NCBI GenBank assembly: GCA_963700155.1
Contig: OY969472.1
Location: 744,690-808,689 of the forward strand
From: an uncultured bacterium
Lineage (GTDB): Bacteria; Patescibacteriota; Dojkabacteria; J137
Reading direction: 5' to 3'
Length of the DNA: 64,000 nt
Both the position numbers and the translations under genes were made by a program. Positions 4,223 through 59,706 of this stretch are shown here, piece by piece. The notes under the pieces are model-generated. The model saw only the letters and a program-made list of their open reading frames with translations, was not told the origin of the DNA and searched no databases. Numbering within the stretch: position 1 is the stretch's first letter; every line of letters starts with the position of its first letter.

Positions 4223-4756
4223 TTAAGCATTATTTGGAATAAGAAAATAAACATAACTAATTCCAATTTTCTTATTTTCAACTATATTCCATTTTTTAGC
4301 TAAAAAATCATCTAGTGGTTCATTACTCCTCAAAACTATAATACCGTTCTTTCTGAGGACCGTAGCGATTAATTTAAGGGCAATTTTTTTAGTGATAGCA
4401 AATGGAGGGTCAAGAAATATTATGTCGAAATTTTTATCAGTATTTTTTATAAAGATTTTATAATCTTTTCTAAAAATTTCGACAGGCTCCTCAACAAAAC
4501 TTAGGTTATCTTCTAAAAATTGCCCAGCTTCAATATCTTGTTCAACGAAAGTGCCGGAGTCAGCACCACGACTCAAAGCTTCAATACCAAGACTTCCAGA
4601 GCCAGCGAATAAATCAAGTATAGATTTTCCCTCGACGTTTGAACCTAAAGTATCAAAAATAACTGTTTTAATTCTGTCAGTTACCGGACGTGCTGACTCC
4701 GGCACTCTTAATGTTCTTCCTTTATATTTACCTGTGATTATTCTTGGTTTATCCAT
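4223..4756 (-). CDS. rsmD: 16S rRNA (guanine966-N2)-methyltransferase RsmD
   Basis: It has the SAM-binding motif DLFAGSGSLGIEALSRGA and the DPPF motif. Confidence 0.8.
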   Translation of the reverse strand: MDKPRIITGKYKGRTLRVPESARPVTDRIKTVIFDTLGSNVEGKSILDLFAGSGSLGIEALSRGADSGTFVEQDIEAGQFLEDNLSFVEEPVEIFRKDYKIFIKNTDKNFDIIFLDPPFAITKKIALKLIATVLRKNGIIVLRSNEPLDDFLAKKWNIVENKKIGISYVYFLIPNNA

Positions 4757-25647: not shown

Positions 25648-26063
25648 TTTTCAAGATTGATATAAAGGTAAAATTAATATGTCACTCTAGATTATAAATT
25701 GAATATGGTTTTTATTAAAGTCTTAAGATTTGATAAGTAATATCCTTTTAAAATTGTTCATTTTCTTAATCAGTAAAATAGTTCTATATACTCAAAGTGA
25801 TTATTGGTATGTTATGTTTATGTATCCAAGGAGTATTAAGTTGTTTATCGTAAATGCTATTAAAAATCAATATAGAACATTAAAAATTGATTTTTTAGAT
25901 GTTATTAGTTACAATCATAATAGAGCCTACGCTATCCTCAAAGTTTGGCGACATAGCTAACTCAGGCTCATGTAGGCTTCATGTGAGGTAAAATTCTTGG
26001 GTTTTCTCACTTCCAAGATTGAACTCGCTCTTTAACATATCATTCGTAATTAAATATTGTTTT

Positions 26064-26108
26064 GGTCTCCTCTATTTGTATTTTTTTAAGTATACATAGA
26101 GGAGATCA
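26064..26108 (+). promoter_or_regulatory. 12-bp-stem hairpin (GGTCTCCTCTAT...ATAGAGGAGATC, one G-U) 22 nt upstream of the acquired GT2 gene; RBS GGGAGGG follows
   Basis: I read the inverted repeat directly. It lies at the AT-rich to GC-rich transition. Confidence 0.3.
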
Positions 26109-26129
26109 AAACATTAGGGAGGGAATCCA

Positions 26130-27329
26130 ATGGCAGTAAGACTGATGGAACCCCAAATTCCTTCTCTGAGGGAGTTTGAGGAAGATGAACTTTGGGACTT
26201 GCTCTTCTATGGGCAAGCTCCAAAAAAACCTATAACACCTATCGTAGACTGTATGCTTCCTGCTCATGACGAGGAAGCAAACATCGAGGCAACCGTAGAG
26301 AGTTTGTTTTCACAAACTCTACAACCAAACCGTGTAATTGTTGCTGCAGATAACTGCAGCGACAATACTATCCCGATCCTTGAAAGATTGGTAGATAAAT
26401 ATCGTGGGCGGCTCATTTATTTTGAGACCGTTGATAATTCTGCCAAAAAAGCTGGAGCGCTGAATCAAGCGCTCCAGTACCTTTCACATGAGGCGCAGTA
26501 TGTGCTTCAGATGGATGCAGACACAAAGTTAAGCCCAAACTTGATAGAAGAAGCTATTAAAGAGCTTCGAGCTAATCACAAGTTGGGTGGTGTTTGTTCC
26601 AGGTTCGGAGTATTCCCCTACAAGGGGAAGAATCCATGGCATTGGTTTCTCTGGAAGTTACAGGAAATGGAGTACGCTACAAGCGACTCTAGCCGAGTTG
26701 AAGGCCTTGGGGGTACGAAAGTCCTCTCAGGGGCCGTCGTAGTATTCTGGAGATTTGCTCTTGAGCAAGTGTCGTGGGAACATGGCCTTAGTGAACCAGA
26801 ACAGAAAGATAAGGGAAATGTGTGGTCTGAGAGCACAATTGTCGAAGACTATTCATTGACCCTTGACCTGAAGGAACTTGGATGGAAAGTCCAAGCCGGG
26901 ATGGGCATGATGTCGTGGACCGATACCATGCTGACGTTGTGGGATCTCTGGGATCAGAGGTTCCGCTGGCATTACGGGACTTGGCTCGAGTTGGAGCGAC
27001 GCGGGTGGAATAAGACCACCCGTCACGATATTCTCGAGCTTTGTTTGCATTACTTCATATTGGTGTGCCTTGTGATTTTCTTAGGCACTTTGGTCGCGAT
27101 GGTGATAATTGGGATCCCGATTCAGTTCAACGCGATTGGGCTTTCGGTATTGCTCGTCGCGTGGGCAAATAGGTTGTACCGGTTCTCATATATGAGAGAG
27201 CCAAAATGGTACGATCTATTGATCGCGATCATTTTAATTCCTGAAGAAGTGTATTCTATCTACAGGAATATCAACCTGACCGTGGCTCTTATCCGGAGCT
27301 TGAGGACGAAGTCTCCGCAGAAGTGGTAA
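26130..27329 (+). CDS. Processive family-2 glycosyltransferase (PgaC/NodC/cellulose-synthase-like polysaccharide synthase) in a high-GC acquired segment
   Basis: It has DxD (QMDADTK), the Q(R/Q)xRW motif (DQRFRWHYG), and C-terminal TM helices. It is 399 aa. Local GC is about 50%, against a background of about 30%. Confidence 0.7.
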   Translation: MAVRLMEPQIPSLREFEEDELWDLLFYGQAPKKPITPIVDCMLPAHDEEANIEATVESLFSQTLQPNRVIVAADNCSDNTIPILERLVDKYRGRLIYFETVDNSAKKAGALNQALQYLSHEAQYVLQMDADTKLSPNLIEEAIKELRANHKLGGVCSRFGVFPYKGKNPWHWFLWKLQEMEYATSDSSRVEGLGGTKVLSGAVVVFWRFALEQVSWEHGLSEPEQKDKGNVWSESTIVEDYSLTLDLKELGWKVQAGMGMMSWTDTMLTLWDLWDQRFRWHYGTWLELERRGWNKTTRHDILELCLHYFILVCLVIFLGTLVAMVIIGIPIQFNAIGLSVLLVAWANRLYRFSYMREPKWYDLLIAIILIPEEVYSIYRNINLTVALIRSLRTKSPQKW

Positions 27330-27358
27330 ATGTTCGATAACAGGGAGGTATAACTACC

Positions 27359-27733
27359 ATGAACTACGATCCACCTTTCTTGCCGGTAACCGGAGCAGCT
27401 TTTGCCACTGGTGCTGGCGCATACTTACAATGGACGTGGCCAGTGATCCTGGCTGCGGCTGTTGTGTCGTTTGTAATTCTCGCATTTGGGATGATGCTCT
27501 TGCGACGGAATGAAAGCCGGCTGCTCAAATCCGGTGTCAAGGTTCGTCGCAGTACCCTCCCATACATGATCGGCGGAGTCATCGGCATTGTCGTGGGTAT
27601 CGTCGGCGCGGCGCTTGAATTACCCGCACTTTTCGTGATCCCAGCTATCCTGGTCTCGGTGATCCTCGTCGCGGCGCTGCTTGGGGGCTTTCGCAGCAAT
27701 TTCCCTAAACAGCAGCTCGCCCAAGTCGAATGA
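27359..27733 (+). CDS. Small polytopic membrane protein (124 aa) co-transferred with the GT2 synthase
   Basis: It has several hydrophobic helices and is rich in Gly and Ala. It is GC-rich and is followed by a strong terminator. Confidence 0.5.
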   Translation: MNYDPPFLPVTGAAFATGAGAYLQWTWPVILAAAVVSFVILAFGMMLLRRNESRLLKSGVKVRRSTLPYMIGGVIGIVVGIVGAALELPALFVIPAILVSVILVAALLGGFRSNFPKQQLAQVE

Positions 27734-27743
27734 TGTGTTAGAA

Positions 27744-27773
27744 GGGGGCGGTCCGACGTGTCGGACCGCCCCC
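27744..27773 (+). terminator. GC-rich rho-independent terminator-like hairpin GGGGGCGGTCCGAC..GTCGGACCGCCCCC
   Basis: This is a perfect 14-bp arm (at most 12 bp paired with a real loop). It lies downstream of the 124-aa gene at the GC-to-AT boundary. Confidence 0.6.
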
Positions 27774-27843
27774 TAAAACTTTCTTTTATAAATTCAAAAA
27801 TTTCTACTCTACTATAATCTTGAAATAGGTCGAATATTTTTAT

Positions 27844-29481
27844 TTAATTCTCTTGAGTTGCTTCTGGAGTGCTGAGTATTGCTTGATTATTCCCAATATC
27901 AAATTCAAAAATTGGAACCATTCTAGCTTGAAGTAATGGTGCAATATTTGGATCTACAGGTTCGTCTGCATAAGGCTCAGCACAGTAAAATCCAAGCAAA
28001 TCTCTTACAGGGTCAAGTGGCGGCCCATCATAATCTGAAAACTCGAGGATATCAACCGGCCCTCTTAAACCAGCAGCTTCATCTATAAAAGCTTGATTCA
28101 AAGCTTGGGTTTGTTGTGGGCTGATATAAAATAATCCTATTAATTTACCGTGTTCAGTATTCCCATTTTGAGTTATCGTGAATGGTGCATCTTTATAATA
28201 ATCTCGCCTTATCTTTCCTTCTGCTGAAGTAACATTAGTCCAGGCTAATTGGCTTCCAGTTTCTTCTACGTCTGCTCTTAATGGATCTGCAGGAAATTGG
28301 GACCCGTTTGCTAAATATCCTGAGTGAATAGTTTGAACTAAAACTCCATTATATTGCATCCAAACTGGATTGTCTTGTGCAAAAGGATCTCCAGCTAAAA
28401 AATTATCAGTAGGATTCATTTGTCTAGGATAAATTAGTAAATCAAATTCATTTCTGTTCCAAACTTGAGCAGGCTTTTCTATAACTAATTCAGTTAATGG
28501 ACCTTTCTCAATACCAATAGTCCCAAAGTTAATTGAACCTATATGGAAAGGCACAAAATTTTCTACTTCAAATCTTGGTATGATTGATAAAGTTGTTGGT
28601 CTATTCATTCCAAATAGATTCCAGAATTGTATATCTGGAACTGTAAGATTTGGATCTCTTCTACGATATAATCCAATAAATACATCTCTAAAAGCATTAT
28701 TTAATTGGATAATAAACTCAGGGTTCATAAAGTCTTCTGGAGTATATTTAACTTTACCTCCTGTTAGTATATCTGATGCTAAATTACTCAATATTTGGAA
28801 AGCTTGATCAACTGTAAGGTTAGTTCCAACTCCCTGGATATAATAATCATACGAATTTCCATTAATTCCATGTTCTTCTTTATATGCTTGTTGAATAATT
28901 TCTAAAAAGGCTCTAAAGTTACCGTAAGTGATTTCAGAATATAATTGTTCAGGAGTTTGTATACCTGCAACTTCATTTAAATAGCCATTATTATATAACC
29001 CTGCAGCAACAGCATTATATTGCAACGATTGCAGAAATTCTTCTGCAACTAAACTTTGAGTTACATTACTTAAATGATCCTTCCCAAAAGATATACTGCT
29101 AAACTGAACAGTACCATCTCCGCTCACCTCCATCATCGTAGATCCCCAGCTTCCTCCTCTATTGTGCTCAATATCATAAGTAATTTCATCACTTGTAATA
29201 ATGGGTATTTGGTCAATAAATGCTTCAATTTGAGCATCGCTCATTTCAGGGTGAAATAGCTTGACACTATTATGTATAAAGCTTCTAATTTCAGGATTAT
29301 TAAATGCGTAATTGATTGAGGGATATTGATTATGTGGAATGATAATTGCATCTGGTGATAAAACAATATTTATAGGTGTTGGATCAGCTGGTAAATTTGA
29401 TTGTGCATCAATAGATTGTTGTGAACCAATCCCAAGCATTGATGCTGTTATTGCCAGTGCCGCTAAACTCTTTCTATTCAT
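27844..29481 (-). CDS. Secreted hypothetical protein (545 aa, signal peptide)
   Basis: It has an N-terminal signal peptide (MNRKSLAALAITASMLGIG) and no recognisable catalytic motif. Confidence 0.5.
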   Translation of the reverse strand: MNRKSLAALAITASMLGIGSQQSIDAQSNLPADPTPINIVLSPDAIIIPHNQYPSINYAFNNPEIRSFIHNSVKLFHPEMSDAQIEAFIDQIPIITSDEITYDIEHNRGGSWGSTMMEVSGDGTVQFSSISFGKDHLSNVTQSLVAEEFLQSLQYNAVAAGLYNNGYLNEVAGIQTPEQLYSEITYGNFRAFLEIIQQAYKEEHGINGNSYDYYIQGVGTNLTVDQAFQILSNLASDILTGGKVKYTPEDFMNPEFIIQLNNAFRDVFIGLYRRRDPNLTVPDIQFWNLFGMNRPTTLSIIPRFEVENFVPFHIGSINFGTIGIEKGPLTELVIEKPAQVWNRNEFDLLIYPRQMNPTDNFLAGDPFAQDNPVWMQYNGVLVQTIHSGYLANGSQFPADPLRADVEETGSQLAWTNVTSAEGKIRRDYYKDAPFTITQNGNTEHGKLIGLFYISPQQTQALNQAFIDEAAGLRGPVDILEFSDYDGPPLDPVRDLLGFYCAEPYADEPVDPNIAPLLQARMVPIFEFDIGNNQAILSTPEATQEN

Positions 29482-29574
29482 AGATGTAATAATAACTTAT
29501 AAATATGAATTTGAAAAGAAGAATTGCTATTTGTACGGTGTATCAAGCTTTAAGAGAATATACCCAGTGAATAA

Positions 29575-35336: not shown

Positions 35337-35413
35337 TGGTGAGCGCTGAGGGATTCGAACCCCCGACCCTCTCGGTGTAAACGAGATGCTCTAGCCAGCT
35401 GAGCTAAGCGCTC
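35337..35413 (-). tRNA. tRNA-Val (anticodon TAC) with encoded CCA
   Basis: I folded the cloverleaf by hand. The acceptor is GAGCGCT/AGCGCTC, the anticodon stem is TCTCG/CGAGA with loop TTTACAC, and the T-loop is TTCGAAT. The 3' end carries CCA. Confidence 0.8.
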
Positions 35414-35542
35414 GATAACAAATACTACAGATTTTTAAAGCTTTAACTCTAGCTCCCATAAAGGGACTAATATCTTCTTTTATTCGACTACACTTCGCTT
35501 GTCTCACAAAGAATCTCTTGAGCAGCTGAGCTAAGCGCTCGA
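35414..35542 (-). repeat. tRNA-linked conserved element, copy A (~128 nt) immediately upstream of tRNA-Val(TAC); its distal end duplicates tRNA-Val nt 1-19
   Basis: It is homologous to 54935..55063, sharing long identical runs such as TTTTTAAAGCT, GGGACTAA and ACAAAGAATCTCT. The segment AGCTGAGCTAAGCGCTCG duplicates the tRNA 5' end. Confidence 0.55.
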
Positions 35543-35574
35543 AAAACGAGCACTGTATTATATCTTATTTTCTT

Positions 35575-35617
35575 ATAATGGTGAATAGTAATTATTTGTA
35601 ATCCCTCAGCGCTCACC
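35575..35617. repeat. Two short fragments of the tRNA-Val(TAC) 3' end: direct copy ATAATGGTGA (35575-35584) and 18-nt inverted copy AATCCCTCAGCGCTCACC (35600-35617)
   Basis: The inverted copy is the exact reverse complement of 35338-35355. Read as a scar, this would be an att-site-like remnant of past integration. Confidence 0.4.
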
Positions 35618-54763: not shown

Positions 54764-54861
54764 CTCTCATTTTTAACCGATTGATATTATTATATCATGA
54801 ATATATAAGGTATAGCTACACTCCAATCGAGGGTTGTAATTATTCTCGGTACTAATAAAAG

Positions 54862-54934
54862 TGCCAGGGGGCAGACTCGGACTGCCGACACCTCGCTCTT
54901 CAGGCGAGTGCTCTACCAGCTGAGCTACCCTAGC
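54862..54934 (-). tRNA. tRNA-Phe (anticodon GAA) with atypical T-loop (T54-C55-C56)
   Basis: I folded the cloverleaf by hand. The acceptor is GCTAGGG/CCCTGGC (one G-U), the anticodon loop is CTGAAGA, and the T-arm is GGCAG-TCCGAGT-CTGCC. No CCA is encoded. Confidence 0.65.
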
Positions 54935-55063
54935 ACAATGAAAGTTACTGGTACTTTAAGTTTTTAAAGCTCTACTCCCACAACGGGACTAAGATCTTCT
55001 TTTGCTCGACTTCACTTGGTTTGTCTTGCAAAGAATCTCTCGAGCAGCTTCGCTACCCTAGCA
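54935..55063 (-). repeat. tRNA-linked conserved element, copy B (~128 nt) immediately upstream of tRNA-Phe(GAA); distal end duplicates tRNA-Phe nt 1-19 (2 mismatches)
   Basis: It is homologous to 35414..35542. The segment GCTACCCTAGCA duplicates the tRNA 5' end. Confidence 0.55.
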
Positions 55064-55118
55064 TAAAAGTGAGCAGGATAATTATAAATGATGAAGCACT
55101 AAACAGCAAGGCTTTATC

Positions 55119-55379
55119 TTACCCTTCATAAGGATTATCTCCATACATAAAATGTAACATAGTATCATCTTCACTTGGGGGATTCTGTAGCAATTCTTCA
55201 ATAAGTTTTTTCCCTTCTTGTGGTTTTAGATCAGTAGGTAATTCATTTGGTGCTCTTTCAGATATTATGTAATCTAAAAGCTCTTGCTCTTCTCTATCAG
55301 TTAAAGGGTCTCCTCTTTCAGCTTTATCCAATAATTTTTGAATTCTATTTTCCGGTATAAGATCTATCTGATCACTCAT
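55119..55379 (-). CDS. Hypothetical acidic protein (86 aa)
   Basis: This is an ORF with no recognisable motif. Confidence 0.4.
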   Translation of the reverse strand: MSDQIDLIPENRIQKLLDKAERGDPLTDREEQELLDYIISERAPNELPTDLKPQEGKKLIEELLQNPPSEDDTMLHFMYGDNPYEG

Positions 55380-56197: not shown

Positions 56198-57364
56198 TTA
56201 CTGTTGTAATTCTTCAATTATCATATTGAGATAATCAAAAGATTCTTCTTTCAATTTCAAGTGCTCTTTATCGAATATATCCATTTCTTCAATTATCTTT
56301 CTGAATTCTACTATGGTATGCAATGCTTGTTGGATGTCTTCAGATGAAATAAATTCATTACCCCTGAATTTTCTTATTTCTTTAATCCTTTTAATAATTA
56401 AAACACATAATTTTTGAATTTCTTGATAAACCATAGACATAAAATCACTCGTTTCAGATTTTGTAATTATTTTATTTATATTAAGATGAATTACAATTTT
56501 CTTTTTACCATTTACTATTATTTCTTTGTAGCCGAAGTCATTTAAAGAAAGATTTTCATACACGAAATTTCTGTGGAGTAACGCAATATCTCTGAGTAAC
56601 ACAGTAAACACACTCTCATTTTCGCCATTATTTGTATTGAATAGATTATTGTCAATTGAAAGTAGTTTTATATTCCTTTCAAGTACTGAAAATATATATA
56701 CTTTATCGCGGCTATCGACTGCATGAGTTGTTAATCTAGAAAGTGTGTTTAATCCAATTTTATTTAAGCTCTCGGTTATTGAAATTTCGCGAGCTGCAGC
56801 TTGTTCATTTGTATAAGTCTTGTAATAAATTACTACATAAAAAGGGACCTTATTTTCTCGAATGTTTTCTATATCATAGTATGTAACTTCTGGACTATCA
56901 AAAATATAGTCTATCTCAGCTGGTGATATCATCTTCTCGGAAAATCCTCGAACACTTTGAAGAAGTTTTAAAAATTGTTCCTTTGTAAATCTAAGTTTAA
57001 AATGAGGATCTTCTTCCCTGTATATAATATCTAAAATAACCTTTAATCTGTCTGCAATTTTTTTTCTTTTTGCATTTAGAATCTCTAATGCGAGTCTTTG
57101 AGAATTAGAGATTCTTAAAAGATTTGTTTGAATTTGTTCTGAATTATTCGAATTATAATATCCGGACACTCTAAGTAACCCTACTTCTTTGGCAAAATTT
57201 ATCTGCGAAGTAAGTCTATTCTCTATTGGAGCTATACTAATAGAAAGAGTTGTATTCCCAAGTACTGAAGCAAGTTGTGTTTTTAAAAAATCTATTGAAA
57301 CTTCAGTTGGATTATCACCTTCAATATGTACCTGACTCGAATCAGGAAGATTAGGTTGATTCAT
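56198..57364 (-). CDS. Hypothetical protein (388 aa)
   Basis: This is an ORF with no recognisable motif. It is the first of six consecutive unknowns. Confidence 0.5.
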   Translation of the reverse strand: MNQPNLPDSSQVHIEGDNPTEVSIDFLKTQLASVLGNTTLSISIAPIENRLTSQINFAKEVGLLRVSGYYNSNNSEQIQTNLLRISNSQRLALEILNAKRKKIADRLKVILDIIYREEDPHFKLRFTKEQFLKLLQSVRGFSEKMISPAEIDYIFDSPEVTYYDIENIRENKVPFYVVIYYKTYTNEQAAAREISITESLNKIGLNTLSRLTTHAVDSRDKVYIFSVLERNIKLLSIDNNLFNTNNGENESVFTVLLRDIALLHRNFVYENLSLNDFGYKEIIVNGKKKIVIHLNINKIITKSETSDFMSMVYQEIQKLCVLIIKRIKEIRKFRGNEFISSEDIQQALHTIVEFRKIIEEMDIFDKEHLKLKEESFDYLNMIIEELQQ

Positions 57365-57379
57365 ACTCTAATTCTATGT

Positions 57380-57739
57380 TTACTCTATTATTAAAAATCT
57401 TTGATTATCATAACTAGTATTTCTTGAAACTGCAATTCTGTTGGCTAATTCTTTATTAGTTTTTAATAATTGAGCAAGAGCATCAGGTATTACAACTTCA
57501 GATGCTATAAGAGCTTCTTCGTTTGTCATTTTCTTTTGTTCTGCTTGAAATTCACTTTCAGATAAATATCCTTCTTCAAGGCAAGTATAGTGACCTAATG
57601 CCATATACTCATCAAAATCCTCAGGACTTACGGATGTAAAATGATCTGCTCCTATAATTCCTAAAATATTTTCTTTTAATTCTTGGTCCAATTCATTTAC
57701 TTCACTTACATTTTCTTGGAAAGTTGGCATTGCTACCAT
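57380..57739 (-). CDS. Hypothetical acidic protein (119 aa)
   Basis: The ORF lies 15 nt from its neighbour. Confidence 0.45.
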   Translation of the reverse strand: MVAMPTFQENVSEVNELDQELKENILGIIGADHFTSVSPEDFDEYMALGHYTCLEEGYLSESEFQAEQKKMTNEEALIASEVVIPDALAQLLKTNKELANRIAVSRNTSYDNQRFLIIE

Positions 57740-57908
57740 AATTGTTATTTTAATAATTTATATAACTCTATTTATAGTATAGAGATATATAATTTTAGCT
57801 CAAAAATAACAAATTTTCCAGTCAGTTTTTATTGACAGCCTACATTAACTTTTAATATGTGTAATGAAATTCGATGTCTATATCTTTTGTCAAATACTTT
57901 GGCGCAAC

Positions 57909-59228
57909 TTAAAGTTCCGTTTCTAAGGTAGTTAAATTCCTATCAAAAATCGATCTTAATTCTTTTAAAAGTTCTCCATAAGTTTTATTTCCTTTTACAA
58001 ATCTTCTATAAGGACTAACTTCGATCGAAATATCTGGATCAACTTTAAGATTTCTAACTAAGTTTTCTAGTGTATTACAATACCAGTTGACTATAATTTT
58101 ACAATTTATTCTTTCTTCTGTAGTAAATAAGTTAACATCATAAATAGATTTTATAATCTCTATGATATCGCTGATATCTCTCATTAAATTTTTAAAATAT
58201 CTTGCAATCTCGTTATTATCCTCTTCATTAAATTCAGCTAATTTGTCAGCATTAACAAATCTTATTCTTGCATTCTCTGGTTCTTGATCATCGTAACTTT
58301 CAAAACTTAAGGTTGAATAATCAAATATTGTTCCGAGGGAAATCCTTTCTTGCAATAATTTCTCAGCATAAATCATGAATTTGGCAAAAAGACTATTATT
58401 AAATGGATAATTCCATATTGCAGGATTTTCTTCGGCAATCTGATAAAAATTTCGCTTAATATTAAAGTACTTGTAAATCAGTTCACTTGGTCTTGGTGGT
58501 ATTCTGACTGATAAATTACCAGAATCTGAATCTTGTGGATTTATGACACTTAAAGTATCAAATCCTTTAGATTCAAGATATTGAGCTTTTGTATAAACAT
58601 CAACAGCATCTTCTTGACTATCATGCGATTCAAATAAAAGTTCTACTGGAATGATCATACTACCACTAAGAAGTACAGCAATTTTTTCTTTAAAATCATT
58701 TAAAGAAATTGATTCATCAAACATTGCTGCAACATCACTAGAAGGTATTTTTATATTTCTCCCCTCAGGTAATTTTGATAGATATTCAGTTAATCTTGTA
58801 TAGATTTCTATCCAATCAGGTTTTCCTTCGACTTTGTCATAAAAGGCGCCCATGGTTTCAGCAGTAATATTATTTTTTATTAAGAATCTTCTCAAATATA
58901 ACTGAAGCATCATTTTTTTTCTAAAATGAGTCAGTATTTCAACTTTAGAACTAGTTAGATGAACTCCAAACTTTGATTCAAGATAATCAATATAAATATC
59001 AATATCTTCAATATCATTTATATTATTTATTATGACTGAAAAATTCTCTTGAAAAACTTCAGGAATTCCTGATTGATTATATTTGAAAGCTCTTTCAACA
59101 GATTGCCCCCTAAATACTTCTAGTCCAATCAAATCCATTATTTTATATGCTGTTTCTCTAATTCTATCTAATCTTCTCTTCCCTGTTTCGTGTTGAAAAG
59201 GATCACCAGATGGTAAGTATAAACTCAT
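57909..59228 (-). CDS. Hypothetical protein (439 aa)
   Basis: This is an ORF with no recognisable motif. Confidence 0.5.
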   Translation of the reverse strand: MSLYLPSGDPFQHETGKRRLDRIRETAYKIMDLIGLEVFRGQSVERAFKYNQSGIPEVFQENFSVIINNINDIEDIDIYIDYLESKFGVHLTSSKVEILTHFRKKMMLQLYLRRFLIKNNITAETMGAFYDKVEGKPDWIEIYTRLTEYLSKLPEGRNIKIPSSDVAAMFDESISLNDFKEKIAVLLSGSMIIPVELLFESHDSQEDAVDVYTKAQYLESKGFDTLSVINPQDSDSGNLSVRIPPRPSELIYKYFNIKRNFYQIAEENPAIWNYPFNNSLFAKFMIYAEKLLQERISLGTIFDYSTLSFESYDDQEPENARIRFVNADKLAEFNEEDNNEIARYFKNLMRDISDIIEIIKSIYDVNLFTTEERINCKIIVNWYCNTLENLVRNLKVDPDISIEVSPYRRFVKGNKTYGELLKELRSIFDRNLTTLETEL

Positions 59229-59250
59229 AAATGTAGTTTAATGAATAATT

Positions 59251-59706
59251 CTATGCAGCTTGTTGTTCAGGCTTGGAAGCCGGTTCATTAGCTAACGGAG
59301 AAGAATATACCATAATTTGAATGGAGTTGTCACTTTGAGCAAAATATATTCCTTCTATAAAATGCAATCCTTCTGAAGTAGCAAGGAAATTCTTCACTTC
59401 TTCAAAGGCTTCTAGGATTGTATCTTCAGTTATTTCTTTTGTAGCTAAAATTAAGCATATTAATGAAATTAAATTTGCATCTAATTGAGGATCTAAAACC
59501 TCTTTTGCTCTAAATTGAGTTGCAGGAAGATAAATATCTTCATTCGGAGGAACTTGAGATTCTCTAATTCTAGAGATTTCAAATGCATTACCATACCCTA
59601 ATTTATTTACAATTTGGGAATATTTATCCAAATCTACTTTGGTTAAATTATCTGATAATTTATAACTACTAGTATCTATTTGTTCAAAAGTGTTTGGTAT
59701 TTGCAT
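59251..59706 (-). CDS. Hypothetical protein (151 aa)
   Basis: The ORF lies 22 nt from the upstream gene. Confidence 0.45.
   Translation of the reverse strand: MQIPNTFEQIDTSSYKLSDNLTKVDLDKYSQIVNKLGYGNAFEISRIRESQVPPNEDIYLPATQFRAKEVLDPQLDANLISLICLILATKEITEDTILEAFEEVKNFLATSEGLHFIEGIYFAQSDNSIQIMVYSSPLANEPASKPEQQAA

Follow-up and report, generated by a model that had tools for sequence, protein, structure and literature searches.

A structured mini-element in the D-loop-coding part of two tRNA genes in Dojkabacteria

Two tRNA genes in the window, the 64-kb stretch of Dojkabacteria DNA analyzed here, are each preceded by a copy of one short element and by a displaced duplicate of their own 5′ end. 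Relatives with empty sites place the insertion between the bases that encode G18 and G19 of the D-loop. The mini-element is real: it is structured, is restricted to this lineage, and makes use of the D-loop of tRNA genes. Our leading interpretation, held with slightly more confidence than doubt, is that it represents a miniature, non-coding, non-autonomous integrative or mobile element in the D-loop sublocation of tRNA genes that is now transcribed as a structured leader.

Two tRNA genes are preceded by copies of the same element

The minus strand of the window carries all four of the tRNA genes detected by ARAGORN. Among them, tRNA-Phe(GAA) is complete and has no encoded CCA (54862-54934, minus strand, by the Rfam tRNA model; 54861-54934 by ARAGORN). 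Upstream of it lies what an earlier note on this DNA had described as a second copy of a tRNA-linked element bearing a duplicate of the tRNA 5′ end, and this description is borne out: copy B (duplicate plus insert, 54935-55063, minus strand) is homologous to copy A (duplicate plus insert, 35414-35542, minus strand), which lies upstream of tRNA-Val(TAC). Read toward the tRNA on the minus strand, copy B opens with a duplicate of tRNA-Phe positions -1 to 18, the displaced native 5′ end of the gene (55045-55063). There follow a 69-nt structured core, CTCGAGAGATTC...GTTGTGGGA (54976-55044), with a long helix and a UCCC/GGGA hairpin; the heptamer GTAGAGC (54969-54975), which is identical to tRNA positions 19-25 and whose GAGC is predicted to pair with G18 plus CUC, closing the core; and an AT-rich tail of 34 nt (54935-54968) with a small hairpin, CTTTAA/TTAAAG. 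The 5′ half of this tail is conserved among copies, and its 3′ half is the immediate leader of the tRNA. Copy A, also on the minus strand, consists of a duplicate of tRNA-Val(TAC) positions -2 to 18 (35523-35542) and 109 nt of core and tail (35414-35522; core 35454-35522, GCTAGAG 35447-35453, tail 35414-35446). It is followed by a complete tRNA-Val(TAC) with a canonical T-loop and encoded CCA (35340-35413, minus strand).

The duplicate in copy A is identical to its tRNA at 20/20 positions. In copy B, the duplicate (55062-55045, minus strand) reads GCTAGGGTAGCGAAGCTG against GCTAGGGTAGCTCAGCTG for tRNA-Phe positions 1-18, a match of 16/18, or 17/19 with the shared T at -1. The two mismatches that the earlier note had counted are exactly as it gave them, GCGA for GCTC (GCGAAGCTG versus GCTCAGCTG). 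The note had taken them to mean that copy B is the older of the two; however, the mismatches are adjacent and may have arisen together in one event, and a duplicate could also be reset by gene conversion with the tRNA.

Beyond the duplicates, the 110-nt insert of copy B aligns to the 109 nt of copy A, with 84% identity in the core (58/69). An nhmmer profile of the element finds only these two sites in the window (E = 1e-49 to 1e-50), and conserved 18-20-mers of the element occur twice where 0.03-0.15 occurrences are expected; this two-copy match is far beyond chance. The element is thus a short one with two copies in 64 kb. One reading frame is open throughout copy A, but copy B has a stop and the differences between the copies fall mainly at first codon positions, so we take the element to be non-coding. 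Terminal inverted repeats are absent, as the left end, CTCRAGAGATTC, is not complementary to the right end, ...TTGTTATC or ...TTCATTGT. A search of Rfam 15 at E up to 10 matched only the tRNAs, which leaves the element without a family and gives no ground for identifying it with a known ribozyme, intron, or sRNA.

Several derivations of its parts were also considered and set aside. The core does not behave as a decayed tRNA, its local alignment to the rest of the tRNA being no better than that of shuffles. The tail as a copy of the native promoter plus leader finds no support in copy A (p 0.79) and is marginal in copy B (p 0.02), the resemblance being clearer only in a tandem array in the relative L156, described below. 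The 7-mer after the core appears to track each tRNA (P ~0.005 per copy in shuffles), yet we treat this as weak because a covariance-model alignment reads the GCTAGAG of copy A as a 7-nt insertion beside a conserved TAAAGC. A likeness to each T-loop of the sequence AGTCGA followed by AT or GC is more simply a vestige of an internal second copy of the tRNA 5′ end, which is seen in the relative L155 (GGGGCGTAGCTGAAC). Judging from that internal copy, two older units may have fused to give the present core. In addition, the native leader of copy A (35537-35551) contains a hairpin, GCUCG-UUUUU-CGAGC, formed with the first bases of the duplicate; a terminator scan flagged the opposite strand.

Empty sites in relatives

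Related Dojkabacteria contigs (labeled L0xx or L1xx) were reached through the neighboring genes nth or murA. In L024, L025, and L026, whose nth genes are 74.6-77% identical to that of the window, the promoter TATAATTA leads directly into GCTAGGGTAGCTCAGCTGGTAGAGC with no element, and tRNA-Phe of L155 is likewise an empty site with the promoter directly before the tRNA. The native -10 box of tRNA-Phe in the window, TATAAT at 55081-55086 (minus strand), has its orthologues in the promoters lying immediately before tRNA-Phe in these four contigs, and it lies upstream of the duplicate rather than of tRNA-Phe. For tRNA-Val(TAC), empty sites are found in L119 (murA 79% identical) and L028. The promoter upstream of the copy A duplicate, GAAAATAAGATATAAT, matches the one directly preceding tRNA-Val(TAC) in L119, and this orthologous native promoter takes the form TTCACC-17-TATAAT in the window (35557-35585, minus strand).

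Compared with the empty sites, the filled ones are longer by 129-131 bp, the extra sequence following tRNA position 18 and separating the conserved G18 from G19. Both sides of the insert carry tRNA nucleotides 1-18 with 1-2 leader bases, and the complete tRNA lies downstream. Because the same native promoter feeds the tRNA at the empty sites, the element is an insertion between G18 and G19 that regenerates an intact tRNA: the original 5′ end stays upstream beside the native promoter, and a complete tRNA is rebuilt downstream. The target is the D-arm-coding part of tRNA genes reading TAGCTCARCTG/G, where the slash marks the point of insertion. Two features by which tRNA-targeting integrative elements are recognized are therefore present, namely direct tRNA-derived repeats with one regenerated complete tRNA and an empty site in related genomes. 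A third, an integrase of the element's own beside the att site, is absent, the 110-nt insert being non-coding.

Distribution in Dojkabacteria

Two further contigs carry the element. Upstream of tRNA-Val(TAC), L155 (nth 63% identical) has GGGCAGTTAGCTCAACTG, then CTCAAAAGATTCTTAG...AAGAAGATCTTAGTCCTCGAAGAGGG, GTAGAGC, a 31-nt tail, and the tRNA. Upstream of tRNA-Phe, L156 (nth 56% identical) has GCTAGGGTAGCTCAGCTG, then CTCAAGAGATTACAAATG...TAAGATCTTAGTCC...GGA, GTAGAGC, a tail, and the tRNA; this unit is preceded by a further degenerate unit in tandem, again starting GCTAGGGTAG. The duplicates in L155 and L156 are both 18/18 identical to the tRNA of the genome in which they lie. With a covariance model made from the four full copies, those copies score 119-137 bits, and nothing else comparable turns up over 236 kb comprising the window and its relatives. 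The element is present at Val and absent at Phe in L155, and it is absent from the tRNAs examined in L025, L119, and L028. In all, five or six units are known, and at least four of them, in three genomes, are collinear over their whole length, the duplicate and the tRNA being separated by 109-122 nt. The cores of the two window copies are 84% identical, as against 60% for the Phe copies (window copy B versus L156) and 73% for the Val copies (window copy A versus L155), so the copies group by genome and not by tRNA.

Exact-pattern scans with AGAGATTCTTTGNNAGACAA, AAAAGAAGATNTTAGTCCC, and AGCTGCTCNAGAGATTC of collections of genome, metagenome, and viral contigs returned only chance matches, as judged with nhmmer and by eye, and a phage BLAST search gave no match. 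The scans missed the units of L155 and L156 because the patterns were too specific; those units differ in these blocks and were found via neighboring genes. So far, the element has been found only in Dojkabacteria.

Two other loci in these contigs deserve mention. Between clpP and tRNA-Val(GAC), L155 has a weak covariance-model match at 1227-1355 (21.8 bits, E 0.015). On the strand opposite the tRNA, this match has a long AT-rich hairpin whose loop is CGAAGTATA, and then TTAGTCCCCC...GGGGGG; it is possibly related, at a distance, to the core. In L156, positions 4317-4404, upstream of tRNA-Val(TAC), hold a partial 5′ tRNA copy (positions 1-16), then a different GC-rich hairpin of 29 nt, then TGGTAGAAG (tRNA positions 17-25), and then a 34-nt tail, an architecture like that of the window with an unrelated insert.

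A predicted fold with compensatory changes

Applied to the four copies, RNAalifold predicts 24 base pairs, 9 of which have changes on both sides. The long helix comprises 16 pairs (GAGAUUCUUUG... with ...CAAAAGAAGAUCU), eight of them compensatory (8/16), and the prediction includes the closing helix between G18 plus CUC and the GAGC of GTAGAGC as well as the UCCC/GGGA hairpin. Across the alignment, 95.7% of cells are paired, values this high are attained by 0/500 shuffles, and in slid controls the compensatory pairs number 0-4 versus the 9 observed; these covariation statistics come from four sequences, and the same alignment served to predict the structure. Inverted repeats that bind a protein and co-evolve would give a similar picture, although a few G-U pairs favor the tRNA-sense strand. 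In folds modeled for the whole predicted precursor, the upstream duplicate and the true 5′ strand can be rivals for the 3′ strand of the acceptor stem. The element is a candidate for an unclassified structured RNA that is searchable genome-wide with a covariance model.

The adjacent tRNA-Phe and its C55

The T-arm of tRNA-Phe reads GGCAG-TCCGAGT-CTGCC, which gives T54 C55 C56 (C55 at window position 54880, U60 at 54875) and agrees with the TCC that the earlier note had read in this T-loop. The T-loops of the remaining three tRNAs in the window all contain TTCGAA (3/3). U55 has been described as universally conserved, converted to pseudouridine, and in contact with G18 (PMC7912444). The note had accordingly raised the possibility of a pseudo-tRNA, to be abandoned if the gene scored as a canonical tRNA with high confidence, and by the Rfam tRNA model this is how it scores. 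tRNA-Phe matches the model over its full length at 61.2 bits (the gathering score is 29), has no pair flagged as non-canonical, and ranks third of the four window tRNAs (the others score 67.9, 62.1, and 47.8 bits). Its four stems are intact, as are G18, G19, C56, A58, and G53-C61. From the orthologue in L025 (nth 77% identical) it differs only by U55C and C60U, both within the 7-nt T-loop. None of the usual marks of a pseudogene, that is, a low model score, broken stems, or scattered substitutions, is present.

In the five complete tRNA-Phe orthologues compared, C55 is found in the window gene only (1/5), and the other four have U55. U60 is shared with L155 and L156 (both TTCAAGT), and L025 and L028 read TTCGAGC. 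C55 is real in the assembly and, because U60 also occurs in L155 and L156, it is the only unusual base of tRNA-Phe. We consider it likely that this is a functional tRNA with a tolerated C55. The gene might instead be a decaying pseudogene, or a specialist outside the ribosome, owing to C55, with a functional tRNA-Phe elsewhere in the genome. Such decay would be in keeping with the reported universality of U55 and its contact with G18, with the U55 of all four other complete orthologues, and with the CCA, which those four encode and the window gene lacks. We find this very improbable nonetheless: the score is 61.2 bits with stems and tertiary partners intact, two other window tRNAs are also without an encoded CCA, and decay would leave a scattered pattern rather than two T-loop changes, one of which (U60) is common to L155 and L156. 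Genomes of about 1.1 Mb, the length of the source contig, usually have one gene per anticodon, which also counts against a pseudogene. It is quite unlikely, too, that C55 reflects a base-calling or polishing error in the assembly rather than biology. The change is unique among the compared orthologues and sits at a near-invariant base, and long-read consensus errors cluster near methylation sites; C60U creates GAGTC, an instance of GANTC and a possible methylation site, with C55 3 nt from its A. However, GANTC is not depleted in the window (213 observed versus ~189 expected), which gives no sign of a GANTC system.

Genomic neighborhood

The window encodes PBP1, RecG, MutL, ThrRS, MurA, UmuC, Nth, and UvrB. 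Two of these, Nth and MurA, show 100% identity to proteins encoded on a contig of 1,140,724 bp, and the homologues with names belong to Candidatus Dojkabacteria/Patescibacteria. The distance from tRNA-Phe to tRNA-Val(TAC) is 48 nt in L028, 228 nt in L156, ~4 kb in L155, and 19.4 kb in the window, where the interval holds envelope-glycan and SOS-type genes. These differences show that the region downstream of tRNA-Phe varies between relatives, in support of the accessory region that the earlier note had placed next to the locus. As for the note's reading of tRNA-Phe as an integration hotspot, the flanks are variable and integration took place on the 5′ (D-loop) side, but neither a 3′ fragment of tRNA-Phe nor an integrase was found in the 64-kb window to support a hotspot in the classical sense.

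Other features of the neighborhood were noted along the way. At 35598-35615 (plus strand), 18 nt repeat the 3′ end of tRNA-Val(TAC) exactly (AATCCCTCAGCGCTCACC), in inverted orientation, ~55 nt upstream of the tRNA-Val(TAC) promoter and where an orphan 229-aa ORF ends; this copy resembles what an older rearrangement, or integration at the 3′ end, would leave behind. In L119, positions 1640-2205, downstream of tRNA-Val(TAC), hold a tandem array of four units of 129-156 nt. These contain tRNA-Val positions ~20-76 with a hairpin inserted before the T-arm, and their break in the D-loop is the mirror image of that of the 5′ units in the window. L119 also has a second tRNA-Val(TAC), with a mutated 5′ strand of the acceptor stem, after a duplicated ORF. 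An acidic 86-aa ORF with no family (55119-55379, minus strand) lies between nth and the tRNA-Phe promoter of the window; in relatives, the spacer from nth to tRNA-Phe itself is only ~100 nt (L024 and L025) to 160 nt (L026). The ORFs neighboring the two elements (86 aa and 229 aa) are mutually unrelated and belong to no families, and the 229-aa protein is without a homologue.

On the other side of nth, between it and a 143-aa ORF followed by uvrB, four orphan ORFs of 388, 119, 439, and 151 aa with no Pfam family occupy 56198-59706. The gap from nth to uvrB is about 0.05-1.2 kb in L024, L026, and L027, and this short distance in relatives indicates that the 3.5-kb block of the window is an insertion or a lineage-specific addition. 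A region of 34-47% G+C at 25650-29570, between thrS and the 3′ end of tRNA-Val(GAC), encodes a family-2 glycosyltransferase, a 124-aa ORF, and a 545-aa orphan. L114 has only a 141-aa ORF at the corresponding thrS/tRNA-Val(GAC) position, and the region is possibly an island at the 3′ side of tRNA-Val(GAC).

Discussion

We infer that the element is or was mobile, and we take it to be non-autonomous because no integrase, transposase, or reverse transcriptase is encoded by the window ORFs or beside the L155 and L156 copies. More broadly, no recombinase, transposase, or reverse transcriptase was found among the ~64 window ORFs of at least 100 aa or beside those copies, and we know of no autonomous partner of the element. 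Domain searches of these window ORFs gave no Phage_integrase, resolvase, or transposase hit. After insertion, the native promoter would transcribe the duplicate, the element, and the tRNA as one precursor, from which RNase P would free mature tRNA-Phe by removing a structured leader of ~150 nt. Repeated insertions at one site would push older units upstream, giving an array such as the tandem one in L156, and tRNA genes with TAGCTCARCTGG D-arms would be the expected class of targets for a mobile element of this kind. The duplication itself may have come about in either of two ways. Site-specific recombination at the D-loop, catalyzed by a recombinase acting in trans, could have left its core in two copies as the repeats, or the repeats could be a long target-site duplication of 19-20 bp, possibly longer. 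The presence of one element at two different acceptor stems is hard to reconcile with attP-like recombination with the D-arm, since with a recombinase using a fixed attP the element would need a different tRNA 5′ end for Val and for Phe. A long target duplication would explain the tRNA-specific repeats naturally, but we know of no enzyme that makes target duplications of such length. Counting against mobility as such are the absence of terminal inverted repeats, a duplication that at 19-20 bp exceeds those typical of transposases, the very small substrate that a 128-bp circle would offer for recombination, and a total of only five or six units.

Comparison with known systems places the element between several of them. 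In Klebsiella pneumoniae, the arg2 islands integrate upstream of arg2, and their repeat is composed of the acceptor stem's 5′ half together with the D-stem and D-loop (bioRxiv 10.1101/2020.11.02.365908). As in those islands, the insertion in the window is on the 5′ side of the tRNA and the intact tRNA is regenerated, and their D-loop sublocation is the closest precedent. The Klebsiella islands are, however, multi-kilobase and carry their own tyrosine integrase, whereas ~110 non-coding bases lie between the repeats here with no integrase nearby; unlike them, moreover, the present element has the same core at two different tRNAs, units in tandem, and a fold supported by covariation. Miniature inverted-repeat-type elements (MITEs) and other small bacterial repeats, such as Correia elements, RUP, and Rickettsia palindromic elements, are likewise short, non-coding, structured, multi-copy, and patchy, and they too duplicate their target. 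The window element is a poor fit to MITEs in other respects: it is without terminal inverted repeats, it duplicates 19-20 bp where those elements duplicate 2-10 bp, and its target is strict, a single position in tRNA D-loops. We know of no transposase related to the element.

Like CIMEs and the partial-tRNA arrays of the tycheposon type (bioRxiv 10.1101/2020.12.28.424599), the units are flanked by att-like repeats without a recombinase of their own. In those systems, successive integrations displace older, degenerating partial-tRNA copies from the gene, as would also happen here. Those systems involve the 3′ part of the tRNA and span kilobases, whereas the window units are ~130 bp and involve the 5′ part. 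A comparison with tRNA introns is also instructive. Bacterial group I introns interrupt tRNA genes in the anticodon loop, and archaeal and red-algal introns are found in the D-loop. The element resembles them in being a structured RNA inside a tRNA-coding sequence at a loop position, but the functional tRNA of the window is uninterrupted and needs no splicing, and compared with group I introns the core is too small and has no intron or ribozyme match in Rfam.

Among other accounts of the element, one would make it useful to the host: a beneficial structured leader or small RNA co-transcribed with tRNA-Val(TAC) and tRNA-Phe, spread by duplication and kept by selection. Its 5′ part would mimic the 5′ strand of the tRNA, for example in controlling precursor folding or RNase P processing. 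Compensatory changes that keep the long helix across three genomes and G-U pairs on the tRNA-sense strand agree with such a role, as do an upstream duplicate of positions 1-18 that stays nearly perfect while the adjacent leader diverges and the predicted competition of this duplicate for the acceptor 3′ strand. A mobile element could make equal use of the structure, however, and the distribution is patchy, with the closest relatives lacking the element at both tRNAs and L155 having it at Val and not at Phe. The tandem degenerate units of L156, the grouping of copies by genome rather than by tRNA, and the lack of an Rfam family also weigh against a host leader, which we regard as unlikely. Alternatively, the units could be scars of larger islands that used a D-loop-specific integrase, with internal deletion leaving two att-proximal arms between attL and attR. 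The direct repeats have the composition reported for D-loop-type islands (bioRxiv 10.1101/2020.11.02.365908), other tRNA fragments occur near tRNA-Val(TAC) (the inverted 3′ fragment at 35598-35615 and the 3′ fragment array of L119), and the flanks of both tRNAs are variable. Yet at least four units in three genomes are collinear, with the same two ends and 109-122 nt, and shared ends at similar size are not expected from random internal deletions; the window copies are 84% identical at different tRNAs, and no integrase remnants were found in the window. We judge this origin improbable.

A more novel possibility, to which we give as little credence as to the deletion of larger islands, is that of a new selfish or functional structured RNA element that homes to the G18/G19 junction of tRNA genes and rebuilds the gene by copying its 5′ end. 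Homing of this sort would proceed by an RNA-mediated mechanism or through a recombinase that reads the D-arm. The RNA-mediated route is possible in view of the duplicated segment's apparent start close to where transcription begins. The conserved fold would then be the active part, as a guide, a ribozyme, or a recombination substrate, and the mirror-image 3′ tRNA-fragment arrays of L119, with the same D-loop break, would belong to the same system.

The miniature mobile element that we favor bears on how small genomes live with insertions. Bacteria of the candidate phyla radiation have tiny genomes and very few recognized mobile elements. In this genome, two essential, probably single-copy tRNA genes received a 110-nt element at the two most conserved bases of the D-loop without being inactivated, a concrete case for how streamlined genomes tolerate tRNA-gene insertions. 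The rarely reported D-loop sublocation is thereby extended to a miniature, integrase-less form. If its C55 is true in the reads, the tRNA-Phe beside copy B would in turn be a natural test of the dispensability of U55, and of pseudouridine-55, in a reduced translation system.
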